A stretch of 20,000 nt of DNA, from the NCBI GenBank assembly GCA_009602735.1, contig WELA01000984.1, forward strand, positions 139,840-159,839. Direction: 5' to 3'. The notes beneath the pieces were generated by a model. It worked only from the letters and a program-made list of their open reading frames with translations, had not been told where the DNA came from and searched no databases. The stretch comes from Mesotaenium endlicherianum. Its lineage: Eukaryota. Positions 1 through 20,000 of this stretch are shown here, one piece after another (the stretch's first letter is position 1; each line of letters starts with the position of its first letter). The translations under genes were made by a program, and so were the position numbers.

Positions 1-830
1 AACACCTTGCGGCGTACCATGACCTTTAGCAGTTCATCAGGGTTGTCCAGGTTTTTCACTTGCTCAATCTCCTGCTTGATGCTGCTGGGCACAACTGGAC
101 TTCTGCCAAACAGCATTTGATAAGGCAAGTAATTCGCCAAAGCAGCTTGCTTGCTAAATCTGTAACCCATAACCAGCCATGGCAGGACCAGATCCCAATC
201 ACGCTTATCATGCTCAAGGCAAAATTTGCGCAAAGCAGACTTAATGGTTTGCACCATCCAATCTGCTAAGACATCTGCTTGTGGGTGATCTCTCAACGTA
301 GTGCGATGGTCAATGAAGCATCTATCCAAGAATTTCTGAAAAGATCCTTGGAACTCAGACCCTTGGTTTGTCAGCAGGTCTGCTAGAGCTCCATGACGTA
401 CAATCACACCGTTGAGGAGCGATTCCGCGGTCCCCAAGCTTTCCTTAGCAGTTAGAGGTACAACCTCTATCCACTTAGAGAAATGCTCAATCATGACCAT
501 AATGTACTTGTTACCTCGCCTGGACTGCGGTAGCTCACCTGCGAGATCGCAGCTTAAATCGGTAGCCTAGGCCCATGATTGGCAAAGGTTGCAGGTGTGG
601 GTGTTGCTGCGTATAACCAGCCTTGACGCGATCGCAGCTTTTGCAGGCCTTGATCACATCCTCACACTGCTGCTTCATGCCCCTCCACCAGTAAGACAGC
701 TCCACAAGACTATATGTCTTCTTGACACCATACTGTCCGGTATTCTCATGCATTTCTTGCACCCGAGCTCGCCTTTTGGTGGGTCTGGCACCAACTTCTC
801 CTGACCAATTTGTTCAATCTTGAAGAGGTT
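1..830 (-). pseudogene. Element A integrase (HHCC zinc finger plus DDE core), frameshifted, truncated by window edge
   Basis: ORF 535-762: MHENTGQYG...YWWRGM...CKSCD...LQPLP. After a frameshift near 555, my translation gives DLAGELPQSRRGNKYIMVMIEHFSKWIEVVP...LLTNQGSEF...HPQADVLADWMVQTIK, open to position 1 (absent from the ORF track because it has no stop). Second catalytic D reads N and the E reads D. Confidence 0.9.
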
Positions 831-1089
831 ATTGCGTTTCCAGCAAAACCTTCTAGCTCGATGGCTCACCTGGTCCTTTTCTTTCATCGATAATCCTTCC
901 ATGTGGACTCCCGTCTTCAGCCAATGCATAGTGGCTTGATGTTTCCAGATCTCTGGAGTGAACAGGGGTAGAGGCTCAGCTTCTCCTGACGCTACCATTC
1001 TAGCCATTTCGGCCAGGCAGGCTGCCAATTCTGCTGGACTGCTTGGATCTTCATCTTCTTGAGCTCCCGTTTTGTTGTCTGCGGATGGG

Positions 1090-1718
1090 TCCGGGTTCTT
1101 GCTGAGTCCATCGGCGTTCTTGAGTATACCTGCTCGATGTATCACTGTCATCTGGTGCTCCTGGAGCTTAAGAGCCCAGCAAGCCAATTTACCAGTGAGG
1201 TCTCTATTCTTCATCAGCCAGAGCAACGGCGAGTGATCTGTGATCAGCGTGAAGGGTCTTCCTCATAGATACTCTCTGAAATGTGCGACAGTTCAAACCA
1301 CTGCCAGCAGCTCTCCTTCGTAGGACGAGTAGTTGCTCTCCGCTCGGTTGTTAGAGCGCGAGGCATAGGCAATGACGTACTCCTCTCTAAGACTTGCGGC
1401 CTGAGTGAGTACTGCACCGATTTTCACACGACTCCAGTCAGTGTGTAGACTGAACAGCTTGGAGTAGTTGGGCGTTCGCAAAACTGGGGCCGTTACCAGC
1501 CGCTTCTTGAGCTCGTTCATGGCCTTCTCCTGGGCTTCCGTCCATACAGAAGGTACGTTCTTTTTCAGGAGTTCTGTCAAGGGTTTAGCAATTTTGCTAT
1601 AGTCCTTCACAAATTTACGATAGTATCCGCTTAGCCCTAACAAGGCTTTCAGCTTAGACACATTCGCCGGTGTAGGTATCTTGTAAATGGCTTCAGTCTT
1701 TACAGCCTGAGGGGACAT
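1090..1718 (-). pseudogene. Element A RT connection plus RNase H
   Basis: LKALLGLSGYYRKFV, LHTDWSRVKIGAVLTQ, YASRSNN..ESNYSSYEGELLAVV, ITDHSPL, NADGLS; in-frame TGA stops at 1293-1295 and 1263-1265. Confidence 0.92.
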
Positions 1719-1739
1719 AGCATTGTTTCCAATCTCATG

Positions 1740-2470
1740 TCATGTGCCTCAAAGAATCTGCACTTTCCAGGGTGCAGCGTCATCTGGAATTTCTCCAGGC
1801 GCTGGAACACTTGTTCCAAGTACTTGAGGTGTTCCTCTATAGACTTGCTGAACACCACTATGTCATCAATGTATGGTTTTGCAAAATCCAGCCCCTCCAG
1901 CACTTTGTCCATAGTCCTCTAAAAGATGGCTGGGGCATTTTTCAGCCCAAACGGCATTATCGTCCATTGCCAAAGTTCCCTTTGAGCCCAGAAACCGGTC
2001 TTACCTCGATCTTTTGTTTTCACAGGGATTTAGTTGAAGCCTTGGCGTAGATCAATGATGCTGAACACCTTCCCGGTGGTAGCAATTGCAAAGATCCGTT
2101 TTGGTGTAGGCATCACATAGCTGTCTGGCTCCGTGTGAAGATTCAGTCGTCTGTAGTCTCCACACATACGAGTGGCTGTATAATTGCCAGCCTCGTCCTT
2201 CTTGGCAACTACTACTGTGGGAGCTCCATGTACTGAGGTTGATTTCTCAATCATGCCAAGCTTGTGCAGCTCCTGGCAAGTTTTATCCACACAGTCCCAT
2301 TCGGTCTGACTGAGCTTATGCGGCCCAAGTCTGACTGGGTTATCAGTAGTTAGTGTGATCTCACACACACTGGCAGTGGTTCTACCAATCTCCTCCTTGG
2401 TAAAAGCAAACGCCTTGCGGTGCTTTTTCAGCAGCCTTTCTACTTGTGCTCTCTGTTGGGCTGAGACCAT
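1740..2470 (-). pseudogene. Element A reverse transcriptase (Ty3/Gypsy type)
   Basis: RMCGDYRRLN, FSIIDLRQGFN*, MPFGLKNAPAIF*, PYIDDIVVFS, HPGKCRF; stops at 2030-2032 and 1919-1921, frameshift near 1740. Confidence 0.95.
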
Positions 2471-2479
2471 TTTTCCAAT

Positions 2480-4700
2480 GGTGCAAACCTCAGTTTCCAG
2501 CTGCTTTTCCCCAACACAGGCATCCAGTAGTTGCTACTTTTTGGGTTCAGGTGGGGTCTTTTTGTCCTCATCCTGGCCTTCGAGCTTTTTTGCCTGATTG
2601 TTAGGAGGTGGAGTGGCAGGCTTCGTAGCTTGCTCCTCCGCTGATTTTAGGCTCGACGGCCTGCTTCCTAGGCTTTTTACCTTTTTCGATGGATCGTCGC
2701 CTCTCGTGTTGAGTGGGGTATGTCAGACGCCTCCGGATGGGCTGCCTCAAGAACCTTTCTTCATCTGCTGCAGTCCAGCTGGTCCCTGTTCCTCCCTCTT
2801 CATGTGGCGGGGGCGGGTTTGGCAAAGGCCACCCTGCTGGATCTGCTATAAGGTCAATTGTCCAACCCCACTTGTGCTCAATAGTAGTAATGCGCGCAAC
2901 GGTCGTGCCAAATTCCTCCCTGGCTGGTGGCGTAATCGTCCATGCTTGTGTCAAAGACTGGGGTCTTTGAGCCGCAGCTAGTTGTGCGTATATAGCATTT
3001 TCTGCTGTCAAGCGGCTTATGGTGCTTCTCAGCTCTACCAATTCCCTTTCAGAAACTGCAGATGTCCTAGGAGCTGAACTGTCCTTCTCCCACGTTCTAG
3101 TGGATGAAGGACGCACCATGGGAATGTGAATTCCCAGTGCCATGGCTTTGCGAATCAAGTCATCCTCTCCTTCTCTCTGCAAAATCTCCAGGATAGGTTG
3201 TGGAGGCGGAGCCATGGTTCCTTTCGGAACCCCTTCTCTCTGAGCTGTTCCCCTATACTTGAGATAACGCATCAGCATCCGCCTGAAAGGTGCATTCCCT
3301 CCCGGGCCACCTTTCTTGGTCTGCTTGCGCGACCGCGAGGATTACCTTGTGTTGGTTCCACCTTAGCGATACAGGCAGCCACTTCCTGCGGCTGTTGTAG
3401 CTGATGGGGGGTAGCTTTTGGTGCTGGAAAACTGGCGGTTGGGGTGCTGGATGTAGGCGACCTCAGATCATTGTATAGATCTGATGGGCTGGGCCCCTCC
3501 ATTATCAAGCGGTCGGCCACCCAGTCATCCGTCCTGAGCTCTTGTCGCTCCAACAGATCCAGCTCTGGGGTAGGAAAACGTGGAATTTCTTCTTGAATCT
3601 CCTCTTCATTGGTGACTGATAGGAGGTCGAACCCTGGAAGGTCTGGCATTTCTGCCTAATCTTCAACTGACTTCTCCACTCCAGGTGGTGGTGGCTCTTC
3701 ATCATTATCTGTGTTGAGCTTCGCCAAGTTGACAATGGCTGATTGCAACGTGCTTGCTGCCTTAGCCACTTCCTTTTTCTTGTGCTGTCGAGCGTCTGCT
3801 TCCAGCAGCTGCTCCATGATCTGCCTTGTAATGGATTCAGCTGTCTGACGGGCTGAACCCTGCTGTTGCCCCTTAGCCTGCGGCTCTGGGCTCATCAAGG
3901 CAGGTGTTGTAGACAATTTCTTGTCCAACTCCTCCTGGCGTTCTTCGAATATCACTTCAAGGCATATGGTCTTGGCAGACCCTCCAGAATCTCCTGAATT
4001 TTGGCTACTCTCTTCAGCCCATTCACCAATATTGCACTGGCGTTCTCGCCCTAATACTTGATTTAGATAATATCCAATTTCTTCAGGCGTTGGCTTAGGG
4101 GCCTTCTTCTCAGACTCTTCTGACATGTCTTGTAACGGCGCTTGCTCTGGTGAAGACGATAGATACTTTTGGTTAGCTTCCCAGCTACTTGAGCTTTCCT
4201 GCCAGTAGTCTCCGTGCCCAGCTGCTCTTGGGCTGAGGTGGGTATCATACCGTGATCTGGTATCTTCTGGAGTCTCCTCACGCCTTGATGTTGTGGCTTC
4301 GGAAGGTGGGCTCCCAAATATCTAGCTGTGAGTGGCGTTTCTCATAGGTGATGGGGTGTCCTGCGTATCGTCTTTTGTGCTTGGCAGCGGCGTTGCCTGC
4401 TCAGGCGCCTGGTCCCCCATGGGTGTATCCTCTCTTTCCAGAGATGCTTGTAATTCATCGGTCCGGTTATCGATCCGATCCAACAGATCCTGGCATCTCA
4501 TCAATTCAGCCACCCTAGCTACCCTGAATGCTCTGTCTCTGGCAGCTTCCGCTGCGTCTCTTTGCAAATCGTATTCTTCTTGTTGCTGATGTGCCGTCCT
4601 GATAGCCCTTTGATTAGATGTTGGCACCACATGGACCCCAATTGTTACTGGTCTTGGCCTCGGCATAGGCTTGTCAGTGAAGGTCAACTGCTGCCACGTC
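2480..4700 (-). pseudogene. Element A long DNMT-RT spacer (~2.2 kb), low-complexity/coiled-coil-like coding sequence of unknown function
   Basis: Chain of same-strand ORFs (4322-4828, 4063-4317, 3656-4126, 3272-3649, 2601-3278) rich in E/Q/P/R, no recognisable domain. Confidence 0.55.
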
Positions 4701-5656
4701 ATGATTGTTTCCACTAACCAAGTCATAAAGTGCTGCCCAGACATGTTGCTGAAAATCTTTGACCCTACAGCACCGGCTATATGCCGAGCTATGGTGTCAA
4801 GTATTCCAAGGTATTTGCCCTTCTCCACCGCAGTAGGCTCTTTCTAAACGGCGTCTCTTTCATGTATGTCTTTGACCATTCTTGGTCCACCTTCTATGAA
4901 GGCTCGAGATCTTGGATATGCTATGAAGGTTGGCAGTACCAACCTTGGCTGACCTAGTTCGTTGATGACACACTGTGGATAGGAATCCCTCCTAGTCACT
5001 AGTCTGGTATGCACCACCAGCGCCTCTTCCACTGTCAATGCCGTTGGTGATCGCCGTGTAATTTCCTCCATCTCTCTCAGGACCTCAATAGACATGCCGT
5101 TGGTCCAAAATATTCTGGCCCTATGGGATAAGCCTCCGTGCTTGGCGTCGTTGATTAGCACATGATGGCCCAAAGTGGAGTCAAAAATCAGCCATGGTTC
5201 TCCCGGCTTCATCTGCTTGTAATCCATTCCTGGATGCACATTCTCAATCACAAACACTGGTGGGTAGTAGTGCTGTCGTTCCCGCAGCATGCTGATGGTT
5301 TTTACCATCCATCCCCAGTATTGTGCTCGTAGATCACTGAATCCCCTCCTGTTTCCAGCTTGAGAAACCGGTTGACAAGGAAATCCAGCAAAGATCCAGT
5401 CAATCCTGTAGCCATACAGGCCTTCAGGCTTCACATCAATAATGTTGCCTCCGGCGATGCGCTCGACATTGCTATATGCGGGCACCAACCCTTTAAAATG
5501 ATGCATTTGTCGCATCTGACTCATGACTTCTCTGAATGCTAGAAAAGCGTGGGCATCATTGTCCACATACAGGACTCTGGCCACCTGTATTCCTTGCTGG
5601 ATCAATGCTATGGTCCCAGACCCAAGTTCGGCAAATAATTCCAATACCACTACTCC
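4700..5656 (-). pseudogene. Element A C5 cytosine DNA methyltransferase domain (DNMT3/Dcm-like)
   Basis: Motif I VLELFAELGSG (FxGxG with G>E), II YVDND, III GNIIDV, IV IFAGFPCQPVSQAG (PCQ at 5372-5380), VI FVIENV, VIII SHRARIFWTN; divergent IX/X-like region continues in frame past the TAG at 4844-4846. Confidence 0.92.
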
Positions 5657-5994
5657 CCTTTTGCGAAAAGGATCTTCCATCCTGACAATGCCTTGCGGCA
5701 GCGGCTCAACTCCAGGCATCAGATTTGCAATGGAGGTAACTGGGTAGGGTACTGGCAGCAACTCTTGCGGGCCGCGGTCCCTATTACTCAGAGTTTCCAG
5801 CTGCTTCATGATCCGAGGTTGCCATACCAAGGGTGTTGGCATGTTGATGCTCGTATAGCCTTCCTCTTCTTGCTTCATGATGTTGTCGCAGGCTTCTGGG
5901 TACCTGTCATTAACACAGCAGTCTAGCAGTCCGTAGTTTGCTTCTCCTGTGCAAACCATCTTCACATGAATTTCTCCTTCCGGCTGCCGATCTG

Positions 5995-6340
5995 TTGACC
6001 GGTAAGTCATCCTCTGATTCCGCAGATCAATGACCAAACCCAAGGGAATCAGTGCTTCTGTTCCAAAGAGAACATCATAGTTCTCTGCCTCCGTCACTGT
6101 GCACTCCATAAGTAGTGATGCCTCTTCAGGTTCCCCTGGATTTACTGTGTCTTTCACAGGCTTGCGGGTAATCCCACAAGACTTTGAGACTTGTCCTGAG
6201 GCAATTCTCAATTGGAAAGGACTCTCTTTTAGGTCCCTTGCCGTCAATCCTAGAGCTTTCACAGCTCGCTTTCCCAGGATGACTGGCTGTGCGCCTGTAT
6301 TCAACAGAATGTTGGGAGCTGCCCAGTTGTTGAAGATTAA
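5995..6340 (-). pseudogene. Element A retropepsin-like aspartic protease
   Basis: ILLNTGAQPVILG (DTG>NTG at 6293-6301) and YDVLFGTEAL; aligns with the element C protease MFDTGAQPVLIS...FDVLLGQDVL; same open frame as the DNMT (ORF 4844-6490). Confidence 0.88.
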
Positions 6341-6470
6341 TGCACCCTCCCTATTCTGCACTCTCACGGTGCTGAAATTGGTGAGCAATGAGGCGCTATT
6401 TGCACCTTCCTCAGCTATATCCAGCTGCTGTCTGGCTTCTTCAACCGTGAATGGGTAAGTGATATGCAAA

Positions 6471-7781
6471 TCAGCGAGGTAAAGGAGCATGCTGGATCCG
6501 GTGTTCCACCAGGGCCTTCAGCTTCTCCAGCGAAAAACGAAATGTCTTACGCGTCCCGGGCCTGGCTTGTCGTAGCTGCGAGATCTCATTTTCATCTAGA
6601 GTGATCCGGAAAGTCTGAGGAAGCTTCCCAGCATTCCTTGGCACCAGACGATTGTGATCTGCTTGCTCGGCAGCCGTTGCGTCCACAGCCATTTCAGGCA
6701 TCAGCTTCTCGCCTTTGCAGACGGTCTTTTCTGCAAGATCTGCATCATAGTAGACATTGGGTGCGTTTAGTTTCGCAAATTGAGCTTTCAACTCAGCGAT
6801 TTCTGCACTCATAGCTTCATACTGCTGGTTACCCTTGGGGTTACCAGAGCCACCCTTTTCTTTCTTTTCTTTCTTGTCTGCCTCTTTCATGGCAACATTT
6901 GCCCATGGCGGTTTTAAATTTGGGTTCTTAGACCAGCACTCATCTTCTGAATGTCCCTTCTTGCTGCAATGTGCACATATCTGCGCCTTGCTAGCAGATA
7001 GTTACTTAGCATCTAGGTACGGACAATCCCTCTTTTGATGTCTTGATTTCTCGCAATTCCAACAGCTCTTTGCTGTTTCAGCAATGTTGGCATGCTTAGC
7101 AAACTTATTGAAAGACCCGCTCTTTTTCTTAAACTGAAAATTAGAGCTGTTGGCCTTAGGCGGAGAGGATTCCTCCCTCCTCTCAGGAGCCATAAGCGTC
7201 CTGGAAGCCTCTTTGTACCACACTTTACCTTCTTCGACATTGCGTGCTATTTCAGCCGCCTCGTCGATGTTCCAGTTAATCCCGTGCTTTGCGGACAGAT
7301 GTGGCTTGACTTCACGATCTGTTTCCTTGCCCAAGCACAACAGAAACTTGTCAGCCACTATTTTGGGCTCGTATATGTTTGCCTTTTTGGCGAGGTCTAC
7401 CAATCTAGATTTAACCTCCAGGACTGTCTCGTTCTTCTGACGAACAAAATGCACATAACGGTGCACCTTAAGACTGCGATCCTATGGGAATCGTGCTTCA
7501 AGTAACTTAAAGAAACGGCACAGACAATGCTCGGAGTCTAGCTGGTCATCCCCACCCTCCATATCCTTACGACAGCTAGCCAAGGCTTGCGCATGGCTTG
7601 CCTCTGTCGTAGCGCTATCGCCTTGCTGACCATGAAGAGGTGCAGTTCTGCGTGTTACTTGTTCCTGAGCATTAGCAATCTTTACAGACAGTTCTGCACA
7701 CACCTTTCGCAACTCTGCGACAGAGCTGGCATCATCGTTCTGAGTAGCAGCCCTTTGCTAACCCTCAGTGAGTTGCCTCAT
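6471..7781 (-). pseudogene. Element A gag (retrotransposon gag core plus two CCHC zinc knuckles), 5'-truncated
   Basis: ORFs 7482-7712, 7002-7466 and 6471-6890 share one frame separated by stops; knuckles CWNCEKSRHQKRDC and CAHCSKKGHSEDEC at 6936-7064; HFVRQKNETVLEVKSRL aligns with element C HFFRRKNETIRMLYRRL. Confidence 0.88.
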
Positions 7782-8521
7782 TGAAAGGGGCAGAGTGCCC
7801 TAGTGGAAGCGTAGTGATTCACGAGGAAAAGAACTAGTTGCAATCATACTAAAGAGTGCAGCGGCATATCAATAAGAAAACTTGAGAAAATTACTTGACA
7901 TTTTGATTAGCAAGAAACCGCTCACAAATGATGTAGGATGGAAGGCCTTGTCATTACAAACCCGTAGAAATTTACAGAAGTGAAAACTGATAAGAAACAA
8001 AGAAGTTATGCCTATTTAAAATTTTCTGCCTAAGTGCTCCTCCCTAGGAGGAAGCTACGGATTTTCCTAAGTGTTCGCCAAATCGTCCCTTCTAGAATAT
8101 TTGTGAGTAAGCCAGATCAGTCTAATCTGACGTTTCGGGCCGAATTGACGTCCACATACATGCATCGACATTACTAGAATATTCTATCTCAGACGCGCTA
8201 GGCTAAATTGAAACTTCTAGGTAAATCGACCTAGTCGACACTCAGCGTCAGCCGAACGCGAAGGTTCGAGTTTATTCTAACGGGCCAGATCGCTCAACGC
8301 TGTCGGTCAATCCGACGGTCGCGCTCACCGCGAATTAAGGACAGTCGTCAACCAACCTCAAAACCAATTAAACTTCAGAAATCCGTAACTCTCTCAATAC
8401 TTGACCAAATTCGATGAACTTTATATCAAAATGACCACAAAACTGCACTCTACACTAATATATAATCAAAACATACTTTTATGAAACTCAAAAATGCACT
8501 TTATAAACCTATGACCTTACA
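7782..8521 (-). repeat. Putative 3' LTR of element B (~740 bp)
   Basis: Starts TGTAAGG 3 nt after the PPT and ends CCTTTCA (6/7 terminal inverted repeat); non-coding, AT-rich, contains a TATA-like box. Distal boundary uncertain; partner LTR not in the window. Confidence 0.65.
8011..8020 (-). promoter_or_regulatory. TATA-like box in element B LTR
   Basis: TTTAAATAGG on the minus strand followed by a pyrimidine-rich tract, typical of a plant LTR U3/R junction. Confidence 0.45.
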
Positions 8522-8524
8522 TCA

Positions 8525-8535
8525 TCCCCCTCCTC
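8525..8535 (-). other. Polypurine tract (PPT) of element B
   Basis: Minus strand GAGGAGGGGGA-tga-TGTAAGG immediately after the chromodomain. Confidence 0.85.
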
Positions 8536-8559
8536 AAGATGCGACGTCCTCGACGCATT

Positions 8560-8721
8560 CTGCAGATAACGTCTCAACTTACTCTTACAATGAGTCAAGT
8601 TGGCCTCTGGCTCCCAAGTGTTGTCGTCCGCATGGTAGCCTTTCCACTTGACCAGATACTCTTGGACAAATCGTTGACCTCGCTTGACTCGTCGATCGCC
8701 GACAATCGCCTCCACTTCATA
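8560..8721 (-). other. Chromodomain at the integrase C-terminus with intact aromatic cage (group I type)
   Basis: YEVEAIVGDR...EYLVKWKGYHADDNTWEPEANL. Confidence 0.93.
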
Positions 8722-10862
8722 CTCCAATACATCATCGATCTCGACCGGTGGTGGCGGTGTAGGTAGTCGTCCTGGATGTCCTTCATTCGGGTCAACGTAT
8801 GGCCGTAGACAACTGACATGGAACACATCATGGATACGCCAGCCTGAAGGAAGTTCCAACTTGTAGGCCACTGGATTCACCTGCTTGAGCACTACAAAGG
8901 GACCTGTAAACCGTGCCCGCAGTTTCCTCTTGCCTGTGAAAGGTAGGTTCTCTGTTGACAAGTGTACTTTGTCGCCCACATGGAATGTCACTTCCCTCCG
9001 ATGCTTGTTGGCATACTTGACCTGTTCCTCCTGTGCCTTCCGAATACACGTCTTTGCCATATNTGCCATATCCCATCTGCTCCATGAAAGCTTGTGTAGT
9101 AGGAACCTGAGTCTCCTTGGCCCTCTCCAACAAGATGTTCCCTGGATGATATACTTCTTGTCCATAAACCATAGCAAATGGTGACTGCTTGGTCGATCCC
9201 TGCATGCTGTTGTTGTAGGCAAACTCCAATCCTGGCAGCTTCTTGTCCCACTCTAAAGGGTCCTCCATAGTGAAACTCCTGAGCACCTCTTGCAGAGTTC
9301 TGTTGAGCCTCTCACTCTGCCCGTCTGTCTGGGGTGATAGGAAGTGCTCATACTCAACTTGGTCCCCATCAAAGTAAACAATGACCGCCAGAAGTTGCTA
9401 GTAAACCTTGGATCCCGATCTGAAACAATCACCTTCGGCAACCCATGTAGCCTGAAAATATGATCAAAGAATAGCCGTGCCACATCTGCTGCCGTAGAAG
9501 TCTCCTTCATGGGAATGAAGTGAGCCATCTTGCTGAGTCTGTCAGACACAACCCATACTGCATCGTGCCCTTGACCACTGACTGGTAACGATGTGATGAA
9601 GTCCATAGCAATCTGCTCCCAAGGATACTCTGGAATAGGCAGGGGCCGCAATGTACCTCCCTTCTTTTGATTTGGTGTCTTGTTTCTCTGGCACGCATCG
9701 CAACTCCTGATCCACTCCTCGATGTCCTTGTCCATACTTCTCCAGTAGTATTCCCGCTTCAGCACGCTTCCCGTCTTCTTGCTTCCAAAGTGTCCAGCAT
9801 ATAAGCAGTCATGATGCTCCGCAAGTAGTAAGTCTCGTAGCTCCTTGATGTCAGGTACCACCACTCTGTTGAAATCACCATAATACCATATGCCGTCCTT
9901 CTTCTGCATACTCGCGTTGAACTCAGCTGCTCCACCATCAGCAAACTCGGGGTCCTCCTCATAACCTCTTTGAAGCTTCTCCTTGAAGTCCATATTCTCC
10001 TTGATGATTGAGACAGCTGCAAGGTCACACCTCCTGGATAAAGCGTCTGCAGGGTTGATCTTCCCAGGTAAGTACTCAATCTTGTGGTCGAACTGTTGCA
10101 GAAACTCCATCCACCTTGCTTGTCTTGGTGTCAACGTCGGCTGCGTCATAAACTTCTCCAAGCTCTTGTGGTCGGTCTTGATGAACACCTTCCGTCCGTC
10201 CACATAACATCGCCAAATCCTCAAAGCCTGGATAATAGCCAACATCTCTCGCTCGTGTGCTGCATAGTTCTGCTCCGCAGGACTCAACTTCCTGCTCTCA
10301 TATGCCACAGGCTGCAACCCTTTGCCCTGGTCCTGGAGAAGAATGGCCCCCACTGCAAAGTTTGATGCGTATGTGATGATGGTGAAAGGAAGCTCTGGAC
10401 TGGCGGTTGCCAACACAGGTGCCTGTGTCAATAACTCCTTAATCCTCTCAAATGCTTGCTGCTCCTTGTCACCCCATAGCCACTTCTCCTGCTTCTTCAA
10501 CATGTCCGTGAGCGGTGCACACACCTTGGCAAATCCTTCAATGAAACGTCGATAATAATTGGCCGTGCCGAGGAAACTCCTGAGTTGATGAATATCAGCA
10601 AGTACCGGCCAATCTCCGACTGCTTGCACCTTCTTCTGCTCCACCTTGACTCCTTCAGCTCCCACTATGTGTCCAAGAAACTCGACTTCCTTGAGACAGA
10701 AGTCGCACTTGCTCATCTTCCCATATAACTTTTGATCTCTCAAGACCTCCAACACCTTCCTCAGATGTTCCACATGCTCTTCCAAGGTCTTTGAATAGAT
10801 CAGGATGTTGTCCACAAATACCACCACAAACTGGTCCAAGTAGGGTCTGAAGATACTTGTCA

Positions 10863-11704
10863 TGATTTATTGAGTCGAGGTTGTCGTATAAAAACCAAGC
10901 TCCACATGTGCGGAACATCAACCTAGGAAGGCCGACTTTGCATTGACTTTACGCATTTGTATGTTGACCTTTTCTTGATTTCCAAGTCACCAACGTGTAG
11001 CGCGTCGAAGCATCTTCCGAATGGCACCAATTTTGCGTCATTTGGTCAAGTATCGAGCGAGATAGGTGCGATCTAGTCCGCGTCACCTACCGGTCCCTAG
11101 CGGATCCTCACCAAAGGGCAATTTGTGTTTCAATGTGCACATTCTTGCCTATTCGTGACCCCCTAAAACCCCTAGCTTGTGCGCACAAATCCGCGAGCCC
11201 CTTAGCCTACATAAGCTTTGCATTTCCATAGTATATGTGCATCATTGAGGCTATAACTTGGTGACTGCATCACCTACTCCTAGAGGAAGCTTCCTCAATT
11301 TCCAGATCCACTTTTGAGGCGCTATCTAGGTAGAATCACCCAAGGTAAGCTCGGCCAATGAGGGACACGTAGCATATCCTACGCACCTTGCTTTGATTGG
11401 TTTGAGTTATGCTTAGCCTATAGGAGTGCTAGTACATGCCTTGTACACATTAGTGGACATAGGAGAGCCTCCTAGAGTGACTACATGCATTGGATCCGCC
11501 GCATACCCCGCCGGATTTCCAGGAGTATAAGTACTAGAGATGTCCCTAGAAGAGACATCTTTTAGAAGTCCATTATGCCAGGTGTAAGTAACAGAGATTA
11601 TCAGTAAAGCTTACACTTTTATCTCTTGTGTTTTCAGGACCACTTAGTTACTCTCTTGTGAAAAGCAAGCCCTCCGGGCTTCCAGTCACTTGAAGAATTT
11701 CACA
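10863..11704 (+). repeat. Putative 5' LTR of element C
   Basis: Begins TG at the point where the element B RT homology breaks; non-coding; TATA-like TATAAGTA at 11526-11533; candidate end ...TTTCACA followed by AG-TGG; shares a spaced motif with the LTR of B. Confidence 0.55.
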
Positions 11705-11706
11705 AG

Positions 11707-11718
11707 TGGTGAGCAAAG
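11707..11718 (+). other. Possible primer binding site (TGGTGAGCAAAG), primer tRNA unidentified
   Basis: CA-nn-TGG geometry ~200 nt upstream of the gag start; does not match the canonical tRNA-Met-i PBS TGGTATCAGAGC. Confidence 0.3.
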
Positions 11719-11906
11719 TCACAACTTAAGCCCTTGCCATAGGACTACTCTGAAGATCATGATGTGCTTCCAGTGATCTTTTGGGCCATACTTCATTAGT
11801 TGTTTTCCTACCAGATTACGGTCTTGAGGTGCTCACTCTGGAGAGTACACATTCCTTACTTCTAAAAGATCTCTCTTTGCCTGCAAGCAATAAGAACCTT
11901 CAGCGG

Positions 11907-13049
11907 ATGCCTACCCGTAGTGGGCTTTCTTATCAGCCATACTACAAAGGGGTTAGTGGAGAAAACTCAGACTCAGATCTCAGCACTATCACTGAACCCG
12001 CCAAAGAAGAGCAACCTGCTCTCCAGCACACAGCAGTTGCTTCTGAGCCATCTCCCCAGTGGGCTCACTACGATTTCTGGTATCCCATGGCAGGTGACCA
12101 CGAGGTCAAGACTGACAGGTCTGCCTACCGCTTCAGCGGTAGGCCAGGTACCTGTAATCTAGAAGATACCATCTTGGAGTTTCAGGCTGACTTCGCGGCT
12201 GCAAAGCTCAAGACACCCACGCTGACTAAGCGCGACGTCTTCGACACGCTTATGCGCTACCTCTCGCACAAGGCCCGCGACACCTTCCGTGAGAAGGAGG
12301 CCGAGCTCCGGACCCGCACTGAGCTTATGGGTGACCCACCAGTGGCGACCCTGCTAGCTGATCCAGTGCAAGCCTTCTGGAACATCCTGAAGACAGAATT
12401 CCAGGCTGCAACTGAAGAGAAGGTGTACGAGCTGCACCATTTCTTCCGACGCAAGAACGAGACTATCCGCATGTTGTACCGCCGCTTGGTGCACCTCCGC
12501 CGCGATGTCGGCACTGTCACTGACCGGGAGGCCGCGGAGATCTTCTTGCGCGCCGTTGAGCCGCGTCTGAGGAAGAGGGCCGTAGTCCCCCTCATCGACC
12601 GCCACGATTCAGAGTATTCTCTGGAGCAGGCCTACCTCTCCGTTGAGAAGCAGAGCTTGGCCGCCGCACGGAGCAACATTATCGATCGTGTGGGCTTAGA
12701 ATCCACGGGCGTGCTCGAGGAGGCCTAAGTGCTGCCGTCTTCTACGACGCGCACGACGCCTGCCCGCCAGCCCCAGTCGCAGCAGCAGCAGCCTCAGCGC
12801 TCTCAGCTGCCCCAGCAGACGCAGCAGCGCGGAGCTACGCGTGGCCGCATTTCCATGGCTGCCACTATGAGCGATCCCTGCTGGTCCTGCGGGAAGACGG
12901 GCCACTCACACCAGAACTGCACTCTCGCGCAGAATGGCAAGCCCGGCGACTGCACCTATTGTGGCAAGGCCGGCCACCTGCAGATCGTTTGTCTGCAAAA
13001 GAAGCGCGACGTCGAGAACGGACGCGCTCGCGACGGCCCTACACCTTGA
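11907..13049 (+). pseudogene. Element C gag with two CCHC zinc knuckles
   Basis: Likely start MPTRSG at 11907; YRFSGRPG, RRKNETIRMLYRRL; knuckles CWSCGKTGHSHQNC and CTYCGKAGHLQIVC at 12879-12992; in-frame stops at 12726-12728 and 13047-13049. Confidence 0.88.
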
Positions 13050-14083
13050 GCAAGACAGCGAGGCGCACGCAACCCTCGTACGGGTGGCCGCCTCGCAATG
13101 ACAGCAGCTACGGCCACGACGGACGCCGCATTGATGCCTGGAGCTGACTATTGCAGCTTCGACGACGTCAGCGACGCCCTCGTGGTGGCCAACGCAGAGA
13201 TTGCTAGACTCCGTGGCCTCATCGACGTTGATAACTATGACGCGTGCGGAGCACTCCTCGCGTCGGCTTCACCGTCCTATGCCACGGCACTGACAGCTGG
13301 CGCACGCACAGCTTCAGCGCACGCATCAGGCTCAGCAGCAGCGCCGCAGCCCCGCGCACGTCCGCGTCACGACGTAGCGTCCGCTGCCAGAGCCGCAGGC
13401 GCCAGCACCGGCAGCTCTGCTAGCCCTGTGCGCACCGCTCTGACAGCGGTCAGCAGCGACAGTCGAAGTCCCGACAAACTGCGGGATGGCAGGCTGCACG
13501 ACTGCGCGGTTGCGCCATCTCCCGGCGCAAGCTCGCGCGCACGCGGGCCAGTCTGCGCGCCAGCCGAGGCCTCGACAGAGTCCCTGGCTTGCGCTTCCCT
13601 GCTGGCACCAGCAGGCCTCCCGTCAGCCCGCGTAGCAACAGCTGGCAGGCAGGGACGGGGGCGGCGTGCACAGCTACAGCTGGTCCGGCCGCAGCCTCCC
13701 GCCCGTGCGGCACGCCCGTGCGCAGCTCTGCGCACAGGCAGGGACAGCAGGTCCCCGCTGGTTGCTGCAGACAGCAGGCTCCAGCAGAATCCGCCACGTG
13801 GCACGTGCACGGCAGGCGGGGCCNACCCTCGGTCAGCAGGGAAGGGTCCTGACTGCGCTGTGCGGCCGGATCGCCGGCAAAAGCGCCGACAGCGCACCCG
13901 CAGCTGCGCACATCCAGGCTCAGCCCTTGCCGCGCACATACCGCCACTTGGCGCGCGCGCATGGCCCGGCTCAGCCCGCGCTGATCGGACGGCCGCAACG
14001 TCTCTCCGCAGTCAGGGGCGGGCTATCCCAACCGCTCTGTGCTGCCAGACCTCCGTGCGGGGTCCTGCCAACGCACGTACCGG

Positions 14084-14666
14084 TGTGCGCAGCCAGGGCT
14101 TAAACCCTGGTTGCACACAATACCCCAGCCCCGACGCATTTTGCGCCACCGGGGCTTCGGCGGGCGTACGCACCAGGGTGGGGGCACGACAAAGCTCGTC
14201 CGGGGCAGCCGAAGACGGCGCCGACACCACGCTGGCAATTCGACCTCGCAGCCCCAGGAGCGACCAGGGCCCGCCACCTGGCAGCCCCCCAGCAGCCGAC
14301 GTCACGCCGGCAGCGGCAGCCGTGACTGCAACTGTGCCTCCAATCGGCACGCATCTGCCGGTTGCGATCGACAGTAGCGGTCAAGGGGGGGGGCCCTTGA
14401 CTGCGCCGTACGAACGAGGCACAAAGCCGGCTGCCGACGCCATAAGTACGGCCGCGCTCAGCCAGGGGCTGTCAACTGGCACGCTTGCGTTGCCACGTGG
14501 CGCGTGCGCACGGCCCAGCACGCCCCGAGAGGACCGGGCAAACTCGGCTGATGTTTTCAGCTCGGGGGCGGCACTCCCGACTGCGCCACGCGGTCGCATG
14601 TCCGATCGCGGTGCCGACGGCCCGCGCACGGCTGCGCACAGCCAGGGCCTAAACCCTGGCTGCGCA
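14084..14666. repeat. Two dispersed copies (14084-14119, 14633-14666) of an inverted-repeat unit CAGCCAGGG-N6-CCCTGG(C/T)TG
   Basis: Read directly; both translate as SQGLNPGC(T/A)Q in ORF 13098-15047. Confidence 0.8.
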
Positions 14667-15069
14667 CAAAACCCCGGCAGCAACCCAACGCAGGCTGCCG
14701 GGGGGTCAGTTAGCCCACGCATCGGGGGGAGGTCGAACGGAGGAGACACCGCGGCTGCCCCGTTCCTTCCGCATCCTAGAGCCCTCCACGACCTCAGCAG
14801 AGCCGACGCCACATGCGCTCGCTTCGCCTATGACGACGGTGCAGCTCAACGTCGAGGTCATCTCTCTAGCACTGCACCGCATGCCGGCGGTCTCCTTTGC
14901 AGAGCTCGGTGTCTCCATGGAGGCAACGAGGCACGCCGCTCAGCTGATGCTCCAATCGCGCAGAGCCACGCTGCGCACCGCCGCCAGGAGACCGACGGCC
15001 GATGCCGCCACCGCGGTGCAATCCGCGCCCGCGCGTCCTGCGCATGAGCGCAGGATGATCAGCACTCCT

Positions 15070-15460
15070 AACGCCACGTTTTTGGATAATTCGCAAGGGA
15101 TCGTGCTTGTCAACACCCAGGCGCCGCAGCGCATCATGTTCGACACAGGCGCGCAGCCGGTTCTCATCAGCCTCCGCTACTTCCGTCAGCTGGGACTCTC
15201 TTCCGCCGACTTGGAGGACTCTCCGACGCGCATTAACACCGCCACCGGCACGTCCGAGACCGTCGCCGGCCGCACGTGGTTGGCGCTACTGTTCACTCTG
15301 CGCCCAGGCACGGCAGACGAGACAACCATCCATCGGCACGCACTCGTCACTCCTTCCGAGTCCTTCGATGTGCTCCTAGGGCAGGACGTGCTCTTTCCCA
15401 TTGGCGCCGCGGTCAACAACTGGGCGGAGCGCGTCTTCTATCGTCCCGACTGGAGGACAG
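15070..15460 (+). pseudogene. Element C aspartic protease
   Basis: RIMFDTGAQPVLIS (DTG at 15142-15150), INTATG flap, FDVLLGQDVL. Confidence 0.92.
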
Positions 15461-16489
15461 GGGGGACGCACACCGCATCCTTGCCCCTTGACATTTTTGA
15501 TCGCCGCCCAGCAGTGTCCGCTCTTTAAGGCTTCATGGGGCTGGGCGATGGCCGGCCAGTGGTCAAGACCGATAAGGACGGGCCCGAGGACAAGGAGATC
15601 TCTGTGGGGGTAGACCTGCTCGAGCCACAGGACGAAAAGTCGGACCTACCTAGTGCCGAGCTCCACCTCACGCCGCAGCAGCAGGCGGATGTCCTGGCAG
15701 CCCAGGCCAGGGAGCAGATCCGCATCTCCACTGCCCACAGCGCGATGATGCGGCAGATGGTGGACGATGCTACTGAGGCCCTCGCCACGGCCAGCATAGC
15801 CATCGCTACCGCCGCCCTTGCTCGCGGTGCGGCCACAGCGCCTACGGCTCATCAGGGGGTCTCGGCCTCTCGCGGCGAGCCGTCCGCGCGCGAACCGACG
15901 TCCGCGTTCACCACGACGTGCCTGTTGGCGTGGCCATTCAGTACAGTATGGACTCTCAGCCGCCCCCTCACGACGCCTCGCATCAGACCGGCGAGACCTG
16001 GCCTCGCACCACGGCATCCAAGGACGAGGTCATGCGGCAGGCAGCTTCTCCTGGCAGATCCGACGACCAGTCCCTCAAGAGTGAGGAGGAGACACAGTGG
16101 GAGCGACTGCCAAAAGCATTTGTCGAGGAACTCAGCGCGGAGCCCTTGCCAGCTGCGCCTACGGCACGCAGGCAGCGCGCACCTACTGGTCCGCTCGGCT
16201 TCAGCGCACCCAGCCAGCCCATGACACACGACTGGCCCAGCAGGGCTCGCACTGACGGCGCTGGTCCCAGCCGTCCAGTGTCACACGACTGCTCGACAAG
16301 CCACGAGTGTCGCCGCATTGCGCATTTGTTTGCAACAAGCCGGGCTGCGGCGGCCTCCTCTAGCGCTGGCACACACTCCATACAGCAGCCAGCGCCCAGG
16401 CTCAGCGTCCGCGAGCTACCCCGCACGACCCCGTCTATCTGCGCCCATCTGACCTACGCACATCGCACTAGGCCGACCATCGGGCCCGC

Positions 16490-16706
16490 TCGAGAGACCA
16501 CTCCTCTCCGCGAGACGAGCCGCTCCCGATCGCTCACACCCCTTTGCGAGACGCGAGAGGTGACTCCCCTCCGCGAGACGCGAGCCCGCTCCATCACGCC
16601 GCCCTACGACGACAGGGAGCGCACGCCTCCTTACGACGACACGCGGGCCCGCGGGGACACGCCGCCATACGACGACACTCGAGACCGACGCCGCACTCCG
16701 CCCTTC
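16490..16706 (+). repeat. Degenerate coding tandem repeats (RExTPLRET-like x3; TPPYDD x3)
   Basis: ORF 15918-16976 translation RETTPLRET..LTPLCETREVTPLRET..TPPYDD..TPPYDD..TPPYDD..TPPF. Confidence 0.75.
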
Positions 16707-17486
16707 CGGCCCCTCTCAGCTGGCGACGACGCTCAGTCTTCTTTCGAGGCGCATTTTGTGATGTTGGCCCCTACAGCTCCGCGCGCCAGCGTCCCTCGCA
16801 GCCACATCGCTGGCGACGGTCCCTCCGGGCTACCTCCTCCCAAGGTGGCCCGCACCGACAGCAGGCCGCCCAATCGCCACCCATCTACGGCCGCCGCACG
16901 CACACGGCTCATGCCTAGTCTCCGACAGCCCCGAGACGTGCCCGTCCCACGAGGGCAGCCCCGGCCGCGAGTCTAGCTGGCCCCTCGCCGGTTAGTTTGG
17001 TCCCCGCAGGAGGTCGACAGCTCCGAGCGCTCCGTCTGCACAGTCCCCTCTGCAAACATGCGCGCACGCCAGCGGGCCTACTTCGACCCGCACCCCTACT
17101 TGACTCAGCGTCCCGTTCTCGACCGGCTGGCCCACACGGCCTTGCACCAGACTGACCACGCCCAGCGCGACAGGTGACAGCAGCTGTGCGTGGCCTCGGC
17201 CCGACGTCAGGCCCGTGCTGTCTCTCCGATAGCCCTCCAGGATGCGCGCCTGCGGTGGCGCACCTACCAGGACCACGCACGGGAGGAGCGTCCGCAGCCG
17301 CTCACTGACCGCATCCCCAGCCTTACGCGTGACTACGCAGACCGTGCTGTGGCCGCCCTCCGCATGGCGCCACATCAGCACAGCGCCGAGGGTACCTTCC
17401 CGCCGCTCGCTCAGCCCGGCACCCCCGCAATGGGGTGTCGCCCACTTCTGACTCCTATCTGCGCAGACGCTCTAGACGAGCGGCCC

Positions 17487-18455
17487 GGCGGCATCGTCCT
17501 CATCGAGCTCTTCGCCTGTATTGCCACCGGGTTGCTCGCGACCTTACAGGTCGGCATCCCGGTGCGCCGCTACGTCTATGTCGATCCCCATCCTGAGGCC
17601 TAGCAGGTGGCCCGTCGGCAGATGGCGTTGTGCCACGAGCGGTTCCTAGACCTCCTTCCCGCGCACGCATTCTGCCGCGCTCAGACAGACTGGCCCATGG
17701 ACATCCGCGACATCACCGTCGAGCATGTCACCCGCCTTGGGCCCATTGACCTCGTCATTGCCGGTTGGGAGTGCCAGGGCTTCTCCAGAGCCGGGCGTGG
17801 CAGGGCGCTCAGCAATCCCCGCACGGCCCTCTTCTGGCACTTGCTCCGCGTCCTCAACATTATTGAGGATCGCCAGCCGCCGCACACACTCGCGTGGGTC
17901 CTGGAGAACGTGGCCGCGCGCCACGATCACCGACCCGATGTTAGCGCCGACTTCGCTCTTTGTAGCAGCTACGTCGGCCGCGAGGCCGTCATTGACGCTG
18001 CCCAGATTGGTTCCTTCGCGCACCGCGTCCACGCCTACTTCACGAACCTGGCAATGCCAGGTACTCTCGAGGCGTTGGCCGCCTCTCATCAACGTCACCC
18101 ACGAACCGTCGACTCCATCCTCGATGCCCCTTGTCTGGCCCAGCGCGTGACTGCACTACCACATCCGTCCAAGGCGCAGTGTGAGGTCCTGCATGACGTC
18201 ACTCGCGCGCTGCCGACTTTTGTCAGCCGCTACGACAGCGACGCCTTCGTCGGAGATCAGCGCGGGATGGTCATCGACCTGGAGACTGGCATGTTTGACA
18301 GGCCGCGCCCTGCGGAGATGGAGCGTGCCATGGGCTTCCCGCCGCATCTCACACAGGTGGATGGTCTCACTGAGGTGAACCGCATTCGCCTCTTGGGGCA
18401 CGCGATTGACGCCAACGTCCTCACGTGGATTCTGCTGCAAACGCAGGCCTTGGCG
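17487..18455 (+). pseudogene. Element C C5 cytosine DNA methyltransferase domain, DNMT3-like
   Basis: I: LIELFACIATGLL..GIPVRRYVYVD; III-IV: DIRDITVEHVTRLGPIDLVIAGWECQGFS (Cys at 17772-17774); VI: WVLENV (ENV at 17904-17912); VIII: IDAAQIGSFAHRVHAYFTNL; IX-X: EMERAMGFPPHLT..RIRLLGHAID; single in-frame TAG at 17601-17603. Confidence 0.95.
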
Positions 18456-18679
18456 CCTCTCTACGCCGCAGCCCGGCATCCCGAGCTGCCTCGGCCTGCC
18501 GATGATGTGGACGATGACTCCACCGACGATGACAATCAGGCCCCGCCCGGCACGACGTGGCATCCTTAGCGCGCAGGGCCTGCACCGCAGGCGCGCGCGC
18601 GCCCTCCCTCCCCACCGCCGCGCAGGGAGGACTCTGGTTCGCTGGGGGGGGGACGGCGGAGAGAGGAGTCCTCACAGCA

Positions 18680-18719
18680 ACCCAGGGAGTCCCGGTCACC
18701 CAGGGAGTCCCGGTCACCC
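18680..18719 (+). repeat. Perfect 18-bp tandem duplication (ACCCAGGGAGTCCCGGTC x2 + ACCC)
   Basis: Read directly from the sequence, in the DNMT-RT linker. Confidence 0.9.
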
Positions 18720-18909
18720 TTTCTTTTTCCTCGCTCGCAGGCAGACGGTGCCAGGCAGCTGGCCGCAGCTGCCACGATGCAGGTACCCGCGGCAGGCCGA
18801 GCGCCAGCCGCTGCAGGGCAGGTGACACCTGCAGCACCACAGTCTACCCCAGCGGCAAGACGGGAGACTCCAACTGCAAGCCAGGCGACGCCACCAGCTC
18901 CACCAACAT

Positions 18910-19749
18910 GGAAGCTGGGGGGGACACTCACCAAGGCGCAGGCTGCACAGTTGACGGCACTGCTGGACGGGAGGCGCAGCACCAGCTTTGCCAGCGGCAT
19001 GCACGATCTCGGGCGCTATAGGGGGAACCCCATGCGGATTACTCTCACGTCGCAGGAGCCCGTTTTCCTGAAGCGTTATCGCTACAGCCACTTCGAGGAT
19101 GGCTTGATCAGCGCGCAGACAGGCAAGCTGGAGGACAGCCGGCTCATTTGGGAGTCCTCCTCTTGCTATGCCGCACCCACGGTCATGCCAGCCAAGAAGG
19201 ATGCCTCGGGCAACTGGTCCGAGAAGAGGATGTGCGGTGACTATCGTAGGCTAAACGAGGTCACCGAGCAGGACAGATATCCTATGCCGACGCCTGACGA
19301 GATCTTTGACGACATTGGCACGTGCACTTGGTTCTCAGTGCTGGATCTGCGTCAGGGCTTCAACCAGATTCCCATCGCCGAGGAGGACCAGCATAAGACG
19401 GCGTTCTGGGGAGCACAGCGGCTCTACGAGTGGGTGGTGATGCCGTTCGGGTTGAAGAACGCGCCAGCTACCTTTCAGAGGGTGATGGATAAGGAGCTGG
19501 TCGGGCTATCCTTTGCCCGATGCTACATCGATGACGTGCTCGTCTTCAGTCAGACGTTTGAGGAGCACGTGGTGCACATCACTGCCGTCCTGGACCGCTT
19601 GGAGGCCGCTGGGCTCAAGTGCCATCCAGGCAAGTGCACTTTTGGGACCCGCGAGGTGGAGTACCTTGGCCACCTGCTCTTCTCCAGCGGCTTGGCACCC
19701 CAGCTGGCGAAGATCTCGGCCATCACAGGCATCCCACCTCCTACAGATC
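18910..19749 (+). CDS. Element C reverse transcriptase; core domain uninterrupted but truncated at the start of the connection region
   Basis: KRMCGDYRRLN, DRYPMP, FSVLDLRQGFNQ, MPFGLKNAPATFQR, CYIDDVLVFS, HPGKCTF, YLGH; homology stops after IPPPTD. Confidence 0.95.
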
Positions 19750-20000
19750 TGTAGTAAAACAGATAGATAAAGTACTTAGTAAAACAGAATAGTTTATCTA
19801 TTCAAGACAAGGATCTTTGAACACAAGTGGTAGCTTCTTGAAAGAGAGATGGCTTCTTGAAAGTTAATATATTTCTGGATTTTGGCAAGTACAAGAGTGA
19901 TTCTGGAATGTCTTTCTATGTTCTAGCTCTTGTTTATATACTTGCTACATAAGTAATTTCTAGGAAGGTGTATGTTGATGTGTTGGCACCCAACACATCC
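19750..20000 (-). repeat. Element D: probable LTR of a further retrotransposon inserted into element C
   Basis: Abrupt switch from GC-rich pol to AT-rich non-coding DNA starting TGTAG (..CTACA end on the minus strand); minus-strand TATATAAA at 19933-19940. Confidence 0.55.

Follow-up and report, generated by a model that had tools for sequence, protein, structure and literature searches.

The 20,000-nucleotide stretch of Mesotaenium endlicherianum DNA analysed here (assembly GCA_009602735.1, contig WELA01000984.1, positions 139,840 to 159,839; hereafter the window) consists of nested, decayed retroelements, namely element A on the minus strand, element B, element C on the plus strand and then element D. 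Elements A and C are decayed Ty3/Gypsy copies belonging to two deeply diverged families of the KnitGypsy-Dnmt3 lineage, and both carry a DNA methyltransferase (DNMT) domain between the protease (PR) and the reverse transcriptase (RT). The favoured reading, to which a probability of roughly 0.6 is given, is that this lineage captured a DNMT3-type enzyme once at that position and that the enzyme methylates the element's own new complementary DNA (cDNA). The kind of element is already published and is not new, KnitGypsy-Dnmt3 having been described from Klebsormidium nitens (de Mendoza et al. 2018, PMC5890265).

Element A (1-7781) encodes gag, protease, C5 methyltransferase, a 2.2-kb spacer, RT, RNase H (RH) and integrase (IN), so that the Ty3/Gypsy order gag-PR-RT-RH-IN is complete, and element C (~10882-19749) encodes gag, a spacer, protease, a spacer, methyltransferase and RT, after which it is interrupted. 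Both copies contain stops and frameshifts and are broken by other insertions. Their features are as follows.

3..780, minus strand: element A integrase, zinc finger and core (Pfam rve, Integrase_H2C2), broken and continuing past the window edge
1263..1739, minus strand: element A RNase H (Pfam RT_RNaseH)
1754..2480, minus strand: element A reverse transcriptase with in-frame stops (motifs, RT alignment, tree)
2481..4689, minus strand: element A DNMT-RT spacer of ~2.2 kb without known domain (domain and relative searches)
4690..5680, minus strand: element A C5-cytosine methyltransferase domain with one stop (Pfam DNA_methylase)
5999..6361, minus strand: element A aspartic protease, NTGAQPV (Pfam, motif)
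6474..7781, minus strand: element A gag, its 5' part cut by element B (motifs)
~7425-7436, minus strand: element A gag KNET, with CCHC knuckles at ~7023-7064 and ~6936-6977
10882..11859, plus strand: element C likely 5' repeat (A1), TATA at 11526, boundary inferred
11858..11870, plus strand: element C predicted self-priming site of 13 nt, perfect complement of 11557-11569
11909..13046, plus strand: element C gag, with KNET at 12453-12464 and CCHC knuckles at 12879-12920 and 12951-12992
15082..15444, plus strand: element C aspartic protease, DTGAQPV (Pfam, motif)
17433..18446, plus strand: element C DNMT3-like methyltransferase domain with one stop (Pfam, profile, fold model)
18915..19749, plus strand: element C reverse transcriptase, cut at 19750 (Pfam, motifs, RT alignment)

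The relationships of A and C were assessed with an RT-RH-IN tree of 58 hand-chosen rows and 573 columns, with RT sequences below 170 amino acids and DNMT sequences below 230 amino acids excluded and loci dereplicated at 80% for trees. Both elements fell within one 25-row clade (support 99/94, bootstrap not fully settled), the sister clade received 100/98 and the joint clade 100/99, and element B, which served as an internal control, was placed with chromodomain-type outgroups outside the A/C clade. A larger tree of RT alone, with 179 rows, likewise set all DNMT-type rows apart from the RTs of 73 other Gypsy rows, with a support of 95. A and C form separate deep branches of a polytomy in the RT-RH-IN tree, where a sister relationship between them is without support. 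The sequence-only reading had held that A and C define an old, diversified DNMT-bearing Gypsy clade; they do share one supported RT clade rather than falling in unrelated ones, but they do not define it, as it is much wider and already includes the type of element reported from K. nitens in 2018. The K. nitens genes KFL_013780020 (gag-PR-DNMT) and KFL_013780010 (RT-RH-IN) follow one another on a contig of 7,497 bp, and the K. nitens RT row P0188, whose neighbour gene P0078 is gag-PR-DNMT, lies within the 99/94 clade. Because this gene pair has the same domain order and falls in the clade, the clade is of the KnitGypsy-Dnmt3 kind (PMC5890265), and the pair appears to be one of that paper's own copies. 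Named relatives in the RT-first protein search came from Klebsormidium, Closterium and the liverwort Calypogeia, and look-ups added Coleochaete (an RT-RH-IN-PHD transcript), Mesostigma (PR-DNMT) and Scenedesmus (RH-DNMT-IN); the DNMT was observed for the clade in Closterium and Mesostigma, with Coleochaete and Calypogeia represented by RT only. The sister clade, a large one (P0012-P0022, P0058 and others; named host Scenedesmus), carries its DNMT between RNase H and integrase and has a C-terminal PHD finger. A and C lie outside the chromovirus group, and their relatives terminate in a PHD finger.

Every motif that had been listed beforehand as common to A and C was recovered in both. The RT insertion reads KKDEAGNY in one element and KKDASGNW in the other; RMCGDYRRLN, MPTP, DLRQGFN, KT(G/A)FW and HPGKC occur in both RTs; the proteases have TGAQPV in common, with the catalytic site being NTG in A and DTG in C; both gags contain KNET and two CCHC knuckles; and Pfam DNA_methylase matches between protease and RT at E 1e-12 in A and 3e-9 in C. 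Sequence identity between A and C is 51% for RT, 33% for protease and 25% for DNMT, and DNA identity (70%) is restricted to 129 bp of RT. The noted differences also hold, with a GC content of 0.50 in A and 0.65 in C and with a spacer of ~2.2 kb between DNMT and RT in A as against spacers of ~2 kb between gag and PR and ~2 kb between PR and DNMT in C; these long spacers had no match among the fetched relatives, and the open reading frame (ORF) of the A spacer had no Atlas cluster match. Motif specificity was scored on 177 RT rows (55 clade, 49 sister-clade, 73 outgroup). MCGDY was present in 45/55 clade rows and in none of the sister-clade (0/49) or outgroup (0/73) rows, the KKDxxG-type insertion was broader (49/55, 40/49 and 0/73, respectively), and MPTP, occurring in just 11/55 clade rows, is no clade marker. 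A programmed gag-PR frameshift as a clade trait was ruled out, gag and PR being in frame in 10 of 14 loci.

The methyltransferase is, judging from its sequence, a DNMT3-related domain that is not rearranged like DRM. A profile built from A and C together with six homologues found DNMT3A at E 3e-22, with no other methyltransferase scoring better than 3e-11, and the predicted structure of the C domain (pLDDT 63) had DNMT3A as its top match. Element A has the most divergent DNMT of the members and matches clade proteins at E 3e-40; its domain is assigned to the clade DNMT on the score of its variable region, which reached 59 bits against a clade profile built without A, with a maximum of 4.8 in 200 shuffles. 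The A domain keeps PC, ENV and RxR, with motifs I and X diverged, and the C domain has the EC variant of motif IV and keeps ENV, with the second Arg of motif VIII replaced by His. Among 216 aligned domains, the catalytic Cys is found in all 216 and the Glu in 209, ENV and RxR are near-invariant, and motif IV has the form EC in 131 domains and PC in 70 others, which rules out decay as the origin of the EC motif in C. Both DNMTs are intronless and lie inside the polyprotein region. An Atlas search with the C DNMT returned generic DNA_methylase clusters only, and IMG/VR returned no RT relative and only distant DNMTs (34 loci, E 9e-11 or weaker), hence no close viral donor by the patterns searched.

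Retention of the DNMT was assessed in the best 80 of 334 metagenome loci, chosen by RT patterns alone. A DNMT stands upstream of RT in 70 of the 80, eight have less than 1 kb upstream and two are without DNMT, giving 70 of 72 informative loci; the two DNMT-less loci are identical copies, internally deleted and also without gag and protease. These 80 loci comprise six families at 80% identity, each with DNMT-bearing members, and five RT clusters at 70%, and the DNMT lies between PR and RT in 10/10 RT-picked clade proteins holding both. Most clade members thus carry the DNMT in the same slot, as the sequence-only reading had expected, and the contrary outcome, with most lacking it, was not seen. 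The DNMT-first search gave 449 representatives at E up to 1e-30, of which the best 150 were examined; together with earlier matches, 170 proteins comprised 23 PR-DNMT, 93 RH-DNMT-IN (often PHD-ended) and 54 unplaced. The RT and DNMT trees of 66 elements shared 20 of 63 splits (shuffled mean 0.24, maximum 3), and RT and DNMT distances correlated with a rho of 0.63 overall and 0.66 within 17 PR-DNMT-RT rows. For the pair L005/L010, stop-free in both domains, dN/dS was 0.11 for DNMT and 0.04 for RT at a dS of ~1.45.

The relatives are without paired long terminal repeats (LTRs) and show split repeats, here called repeats A and B, in the layout A-coding-B-A-B or A-coding-B, and the window holds only the likely 5' repeat of element C. 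Among 40 loci with a 3' repeat, 12 have B-A-B, 26 have B only and 2 are unfinished. Their ends are TG/CA, with a 4-bp target duplication in 8 of 9 loci readable at both ends and one mismatch in the ninth, and a G-run stands immediately 5' of B. Repeat A contains a TATA and, ~32 nt below it, a segment complementary to the sequence that immediately follows A1. Element C has the same 5' geometry: its repeat opens TGTCGTA at 10882 (TGTCATG or TGTCACG at the ends of relatives), and the segment 11557-11569, complementary to 11858-11870, begins 31 nt below the TATA at 11526; a complement of at least 13 nt arose in 1 of 1000 shuffles. The B/A junction CACGACA-nn-TGTCA(T/C)G is conserved and palindromic in L001, L005, L010 and the large family, and the form CACGACA-GC-TGTCATG recurs with small changes across families less than 70% alike in RT. 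The A/B junctions are variable, with gaps of -2 to 6 nt and once of 134 nt including the G-run. A constant B/A and a variable A/B would be left by a B-A LTR that was circularised and reopened at B/A, and the end structure fits integration of a circular cDNA.

From what can be read directly (domain order, clade, DNMT retention, tree congruence, catalytic motifs and the split-repeat ends of relatives), the following cycle is proposed. The DNMT would be translated as part of the polyprotein and, after its release by the protease, be packaged alongside RT. Reverse transcription, primed by the element itself, would yield an LTR in which B precedes A. Once the cDNA had circularised, integrase would cleave the palindromic CA-GC-TG site that lies inside U3; a circle with two LTRs would then give an A-coding-B-A-B insertion, and a circle with one LTR an A-coding-B insertion. 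A methylated cDNA could pass for host DNA, or its methylation could determine the chromatin state of the new copy, and such methylation in cis would be the most likely role of the DNMT. Cis methylation of cDNA has been proposed for DIRS and Gypsy elements (PMC5890265).

A single capture by the lineage, between protease and RT, appears likely from the comparisons above. The earlier claim of one ancient capture is favoured by the RT/DNMT congruence and is held back by the composition of the DNMT trees, which contain element domains (39 hand-chosen rows in one) with cellular and host DNMT3 left out. Several observations weigh against the favoured reading and are brought together in this and the following paragraph. 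The RH-positioned domains form one clade in the DNMT tree (100/99) and the PR-DNMT-RT domains an unresolved grade in which A has a long branch, which fits one capture plus one move and, without host DNMT3, is no proof of it; nine pairs of well-supported RT and DNMT splits conflict, and each of them involves the sister clade; 63 of the 80 loci belong to one family, some assembled twice; L005/L010 is the only measurable deep intact pair for dN/dS, and the value of ~0.4 among decayed copies is weak evidence; and the A DNMT alone did not match DNMT3 in the PDB, its best match being M.HaeIII at E 0.002. Related DNMT modules may instead have been captured several times or swapped among co-infecting elements, the RH-DNMT-IN clade taking its DNMT separately from a PR-DNMT-RT element, which is judged unlikely: the two Pol positions of the 170 proteins, the unresolved DNMT-tree backbone and the two acquisitions of Dnmt3 by Symbiodinium DIRS (PMC5890265) favour such events, but the PR/RH split is present in both the RT (91) and DNMT (98) trees, RT makes the groups sisters, and no supported RT/DNMT conflict occurs inside the PR-DNMT-RT group. 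It seems quite improbable that the clade is not old by descent and reached algae and land plants mostly by horizontal transfer; named hosts are patchy and the element branches show no obvious host order, but the large inter-family distances (A-C RT 51% in one genome, five 70% clusters) require long divergence, wherever it happened.

As regards function, composition bears no trace of self-methylation, the CpG observed/expected ratio being 0.97 in C and, for A and the DNMT-less B alike, 0.54; the K. nitens domain was inactive in yeast, in a test that its authors call inconclusive (PMC5890265); and ~6% of RNA run X23 gave zero depth over the C DNMT and bins up to 19343. The absence of CpG depletion in C, the yeast result and the mixture of EC and PC in motif IV would also suit a fold that was retained without catalysis, to bind nucleic acid or chromatin or to serve as a tether, or one with RNA as substrate, which is very unlikely given that Cys, ENV and RxR are near-invariant and that the related SymbioDIRS-Dnmt3 domains methylate CG in yeast (PMC5890265). 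For the replication model, the repeat layout is read from relatives because the window does not reach the 3' end of A or of C, only 12 of 26 loci have a self-priming match that is perfect over 11-15 nt, and the A-coding-B layout can alternatively arise by B1-B2 recombination. A wider version of the favoured reading is offered tentatively, with the odds somewhat against it: a Gypsy clade spanning the green lineage (streptophytes and chlorophytes), probably missed by LTR-based catalogues, would self-prime, circularise its cDNA and have its integrase cleave an internal palindrome, and one DNMT3, kept since before the split of algae and land plants and moved once within Pol, would methylate the circular intermediate. 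REXdb includes elements with paired LTRs at least 95% alike, a filter by which split-repeat elements are likely missed, and Phygy has tRNA primer sites and no extra domain.

PAT/Ngaro elements have split direct repeats (A...B-A-B) and a tyrosine recombinase, whereas the relatives described here have a DDE integrase, TG/CA ends and 4-bp duplications. The elements resemble KnitGypsy-Dnmt3 in that the coding region of a Ty3/Gypsy element includes a Dnmt3-like DNMT free of introns and, here in relatives, in having DIRS-like repeats, which that paper gives as A-coding-B-A-B in a figure legend only (PMC5890265). Its account sees an acquisition in the K. nitens lineage and contains no replication model; the clade here reaches Closterium, Mesostigma, Coleochaete and Calypogeia, and its sister clade carries the DNMT after RNase H. 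SymbioDIRS-Dnmt3 and SymbioLINE-Dnmt are likewise retrotransposon-borne cytosine methyltransferases under purifying selection, but in tyrosine-recombinase or LINE elements and not in a DDE-integrase Gypsy (PMC5890265). EpiLTRs/DAM-LTRs are also Ty3/Gypsy with methyltransferases, but their DNMT is sister to DNMT4, is accompanied by Dam and a chromodomain, and is set apart by the preprint from streptophyte Gypsy-DNMT3 (bioRxiv 10.64898/2026.05.21.726589), a name also used in PMC12344493; the scanned A and C pieces gave no Dam or chromodomain match and their DNMT is DNMT3-like, so they do not qualify as EpiLTRs. The self-complementary primer site below the 5' repeat is shared with Tf1/Tcn1 self-priming elements, which differ in having ordinary paired LTRs (PMC6317226, PMC5006619). 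In the literature, with subscription journals largely outside coverage, no account was found of the clade in land plants or chlorophytes, of the RH-DNMT-IN sister clade (which includes Scenedesmus), or of the clade's end structure or circle integration.

The remaining features of the window are the following.

7782..10865, minus strand: element B, chromovirus unrelated to A/C and without DNMT (partial RT, RH, IN, chromodomain)
~7782-8521, minus strand: element B single LTR
19750..20000, strand not assigned: element D, repeated, with an LTR-like end, inserted into C (TG start, depth jump, joints and loose ends at 19749-19750)

The interval 10866-11860 was ruled out as a B-type LTR, the match being 25 nt only: a motif at 8386-8410 (B LTR) recurs inverted at 11040-11064 (C 5' repeat), and the repeats are otherwise unrelated. 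An assembly chimera was rejected because relatives have the same domain order within single ORFs (P0032, P0223, P0295, P0297, P0302) and contigs of runs X5 and X7 span the C DNMT. The A and C families are multi-copy, contigs of run X1 covering all 30 bins and the A spacer (2481..4689) along its whole length; in this run the window has A/T where other copies have G/C at 496 sites and the reverse at 252, an excess expected from decay by deamination. The C gag-PR spacer at 13341-14674 is GC-rich and hypervariable, with low depth and many joints among copies and an 87% inverted repeat (14084-14113 / 14639-14668), and the C PR-DNMT spacer contains short tandem repeats encoding TPLRET and TPPYDD (16491-16677). 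In one sub-family, four loci have a single in-frame TAG between DNMT and RT (L002 4509-4511; L005 5083-5085; L010 4661-4663; also L003), followed by CAR-YYA, the readthrough context of tobacco mosaic virus; with readthrough, gag-PR-DNMT would far exceed RT-IN. The related L009 has tandem stops without CAR-YYA, and other families have no conserved stop. The nearest RT outgroups (P0230, P0250, P0284) carry an adenine methyltransferase (Dam) immediately ahead of RT, which in P0230 and P0250 places it after the protease, and two of the three have a PHD finger; the PR-RT slot may have held Dam before DNMT, or may have been filled twice. Clade members P0015 and P0348 are catalogued at NCBI as Minisyncoccia and Synechococcales and are likely eukaryotic contigs in metagenome bins, and the Closterium gene model P0023 has part of a clade DNMT fused to a Copia-type RT, possibly a nested-insertion artefact.

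With these results, a curiosity of a single alga becomes an old lineage of wide distribution, in which related DNMT domains number in the hundreds, and owing to this breadth the question of why transposons carry a silencing enzyme becomes testable across hosts with different methylomes. Circular cDNA of LTR elements is normally considered a dead end; the permuted ends point towards LTR elements for which the circle is the integrating form, and offer a likely reason for their being overlooked in standard annotation. In addition, element-borne DNMT3 copies can inflate host DNMT counts.

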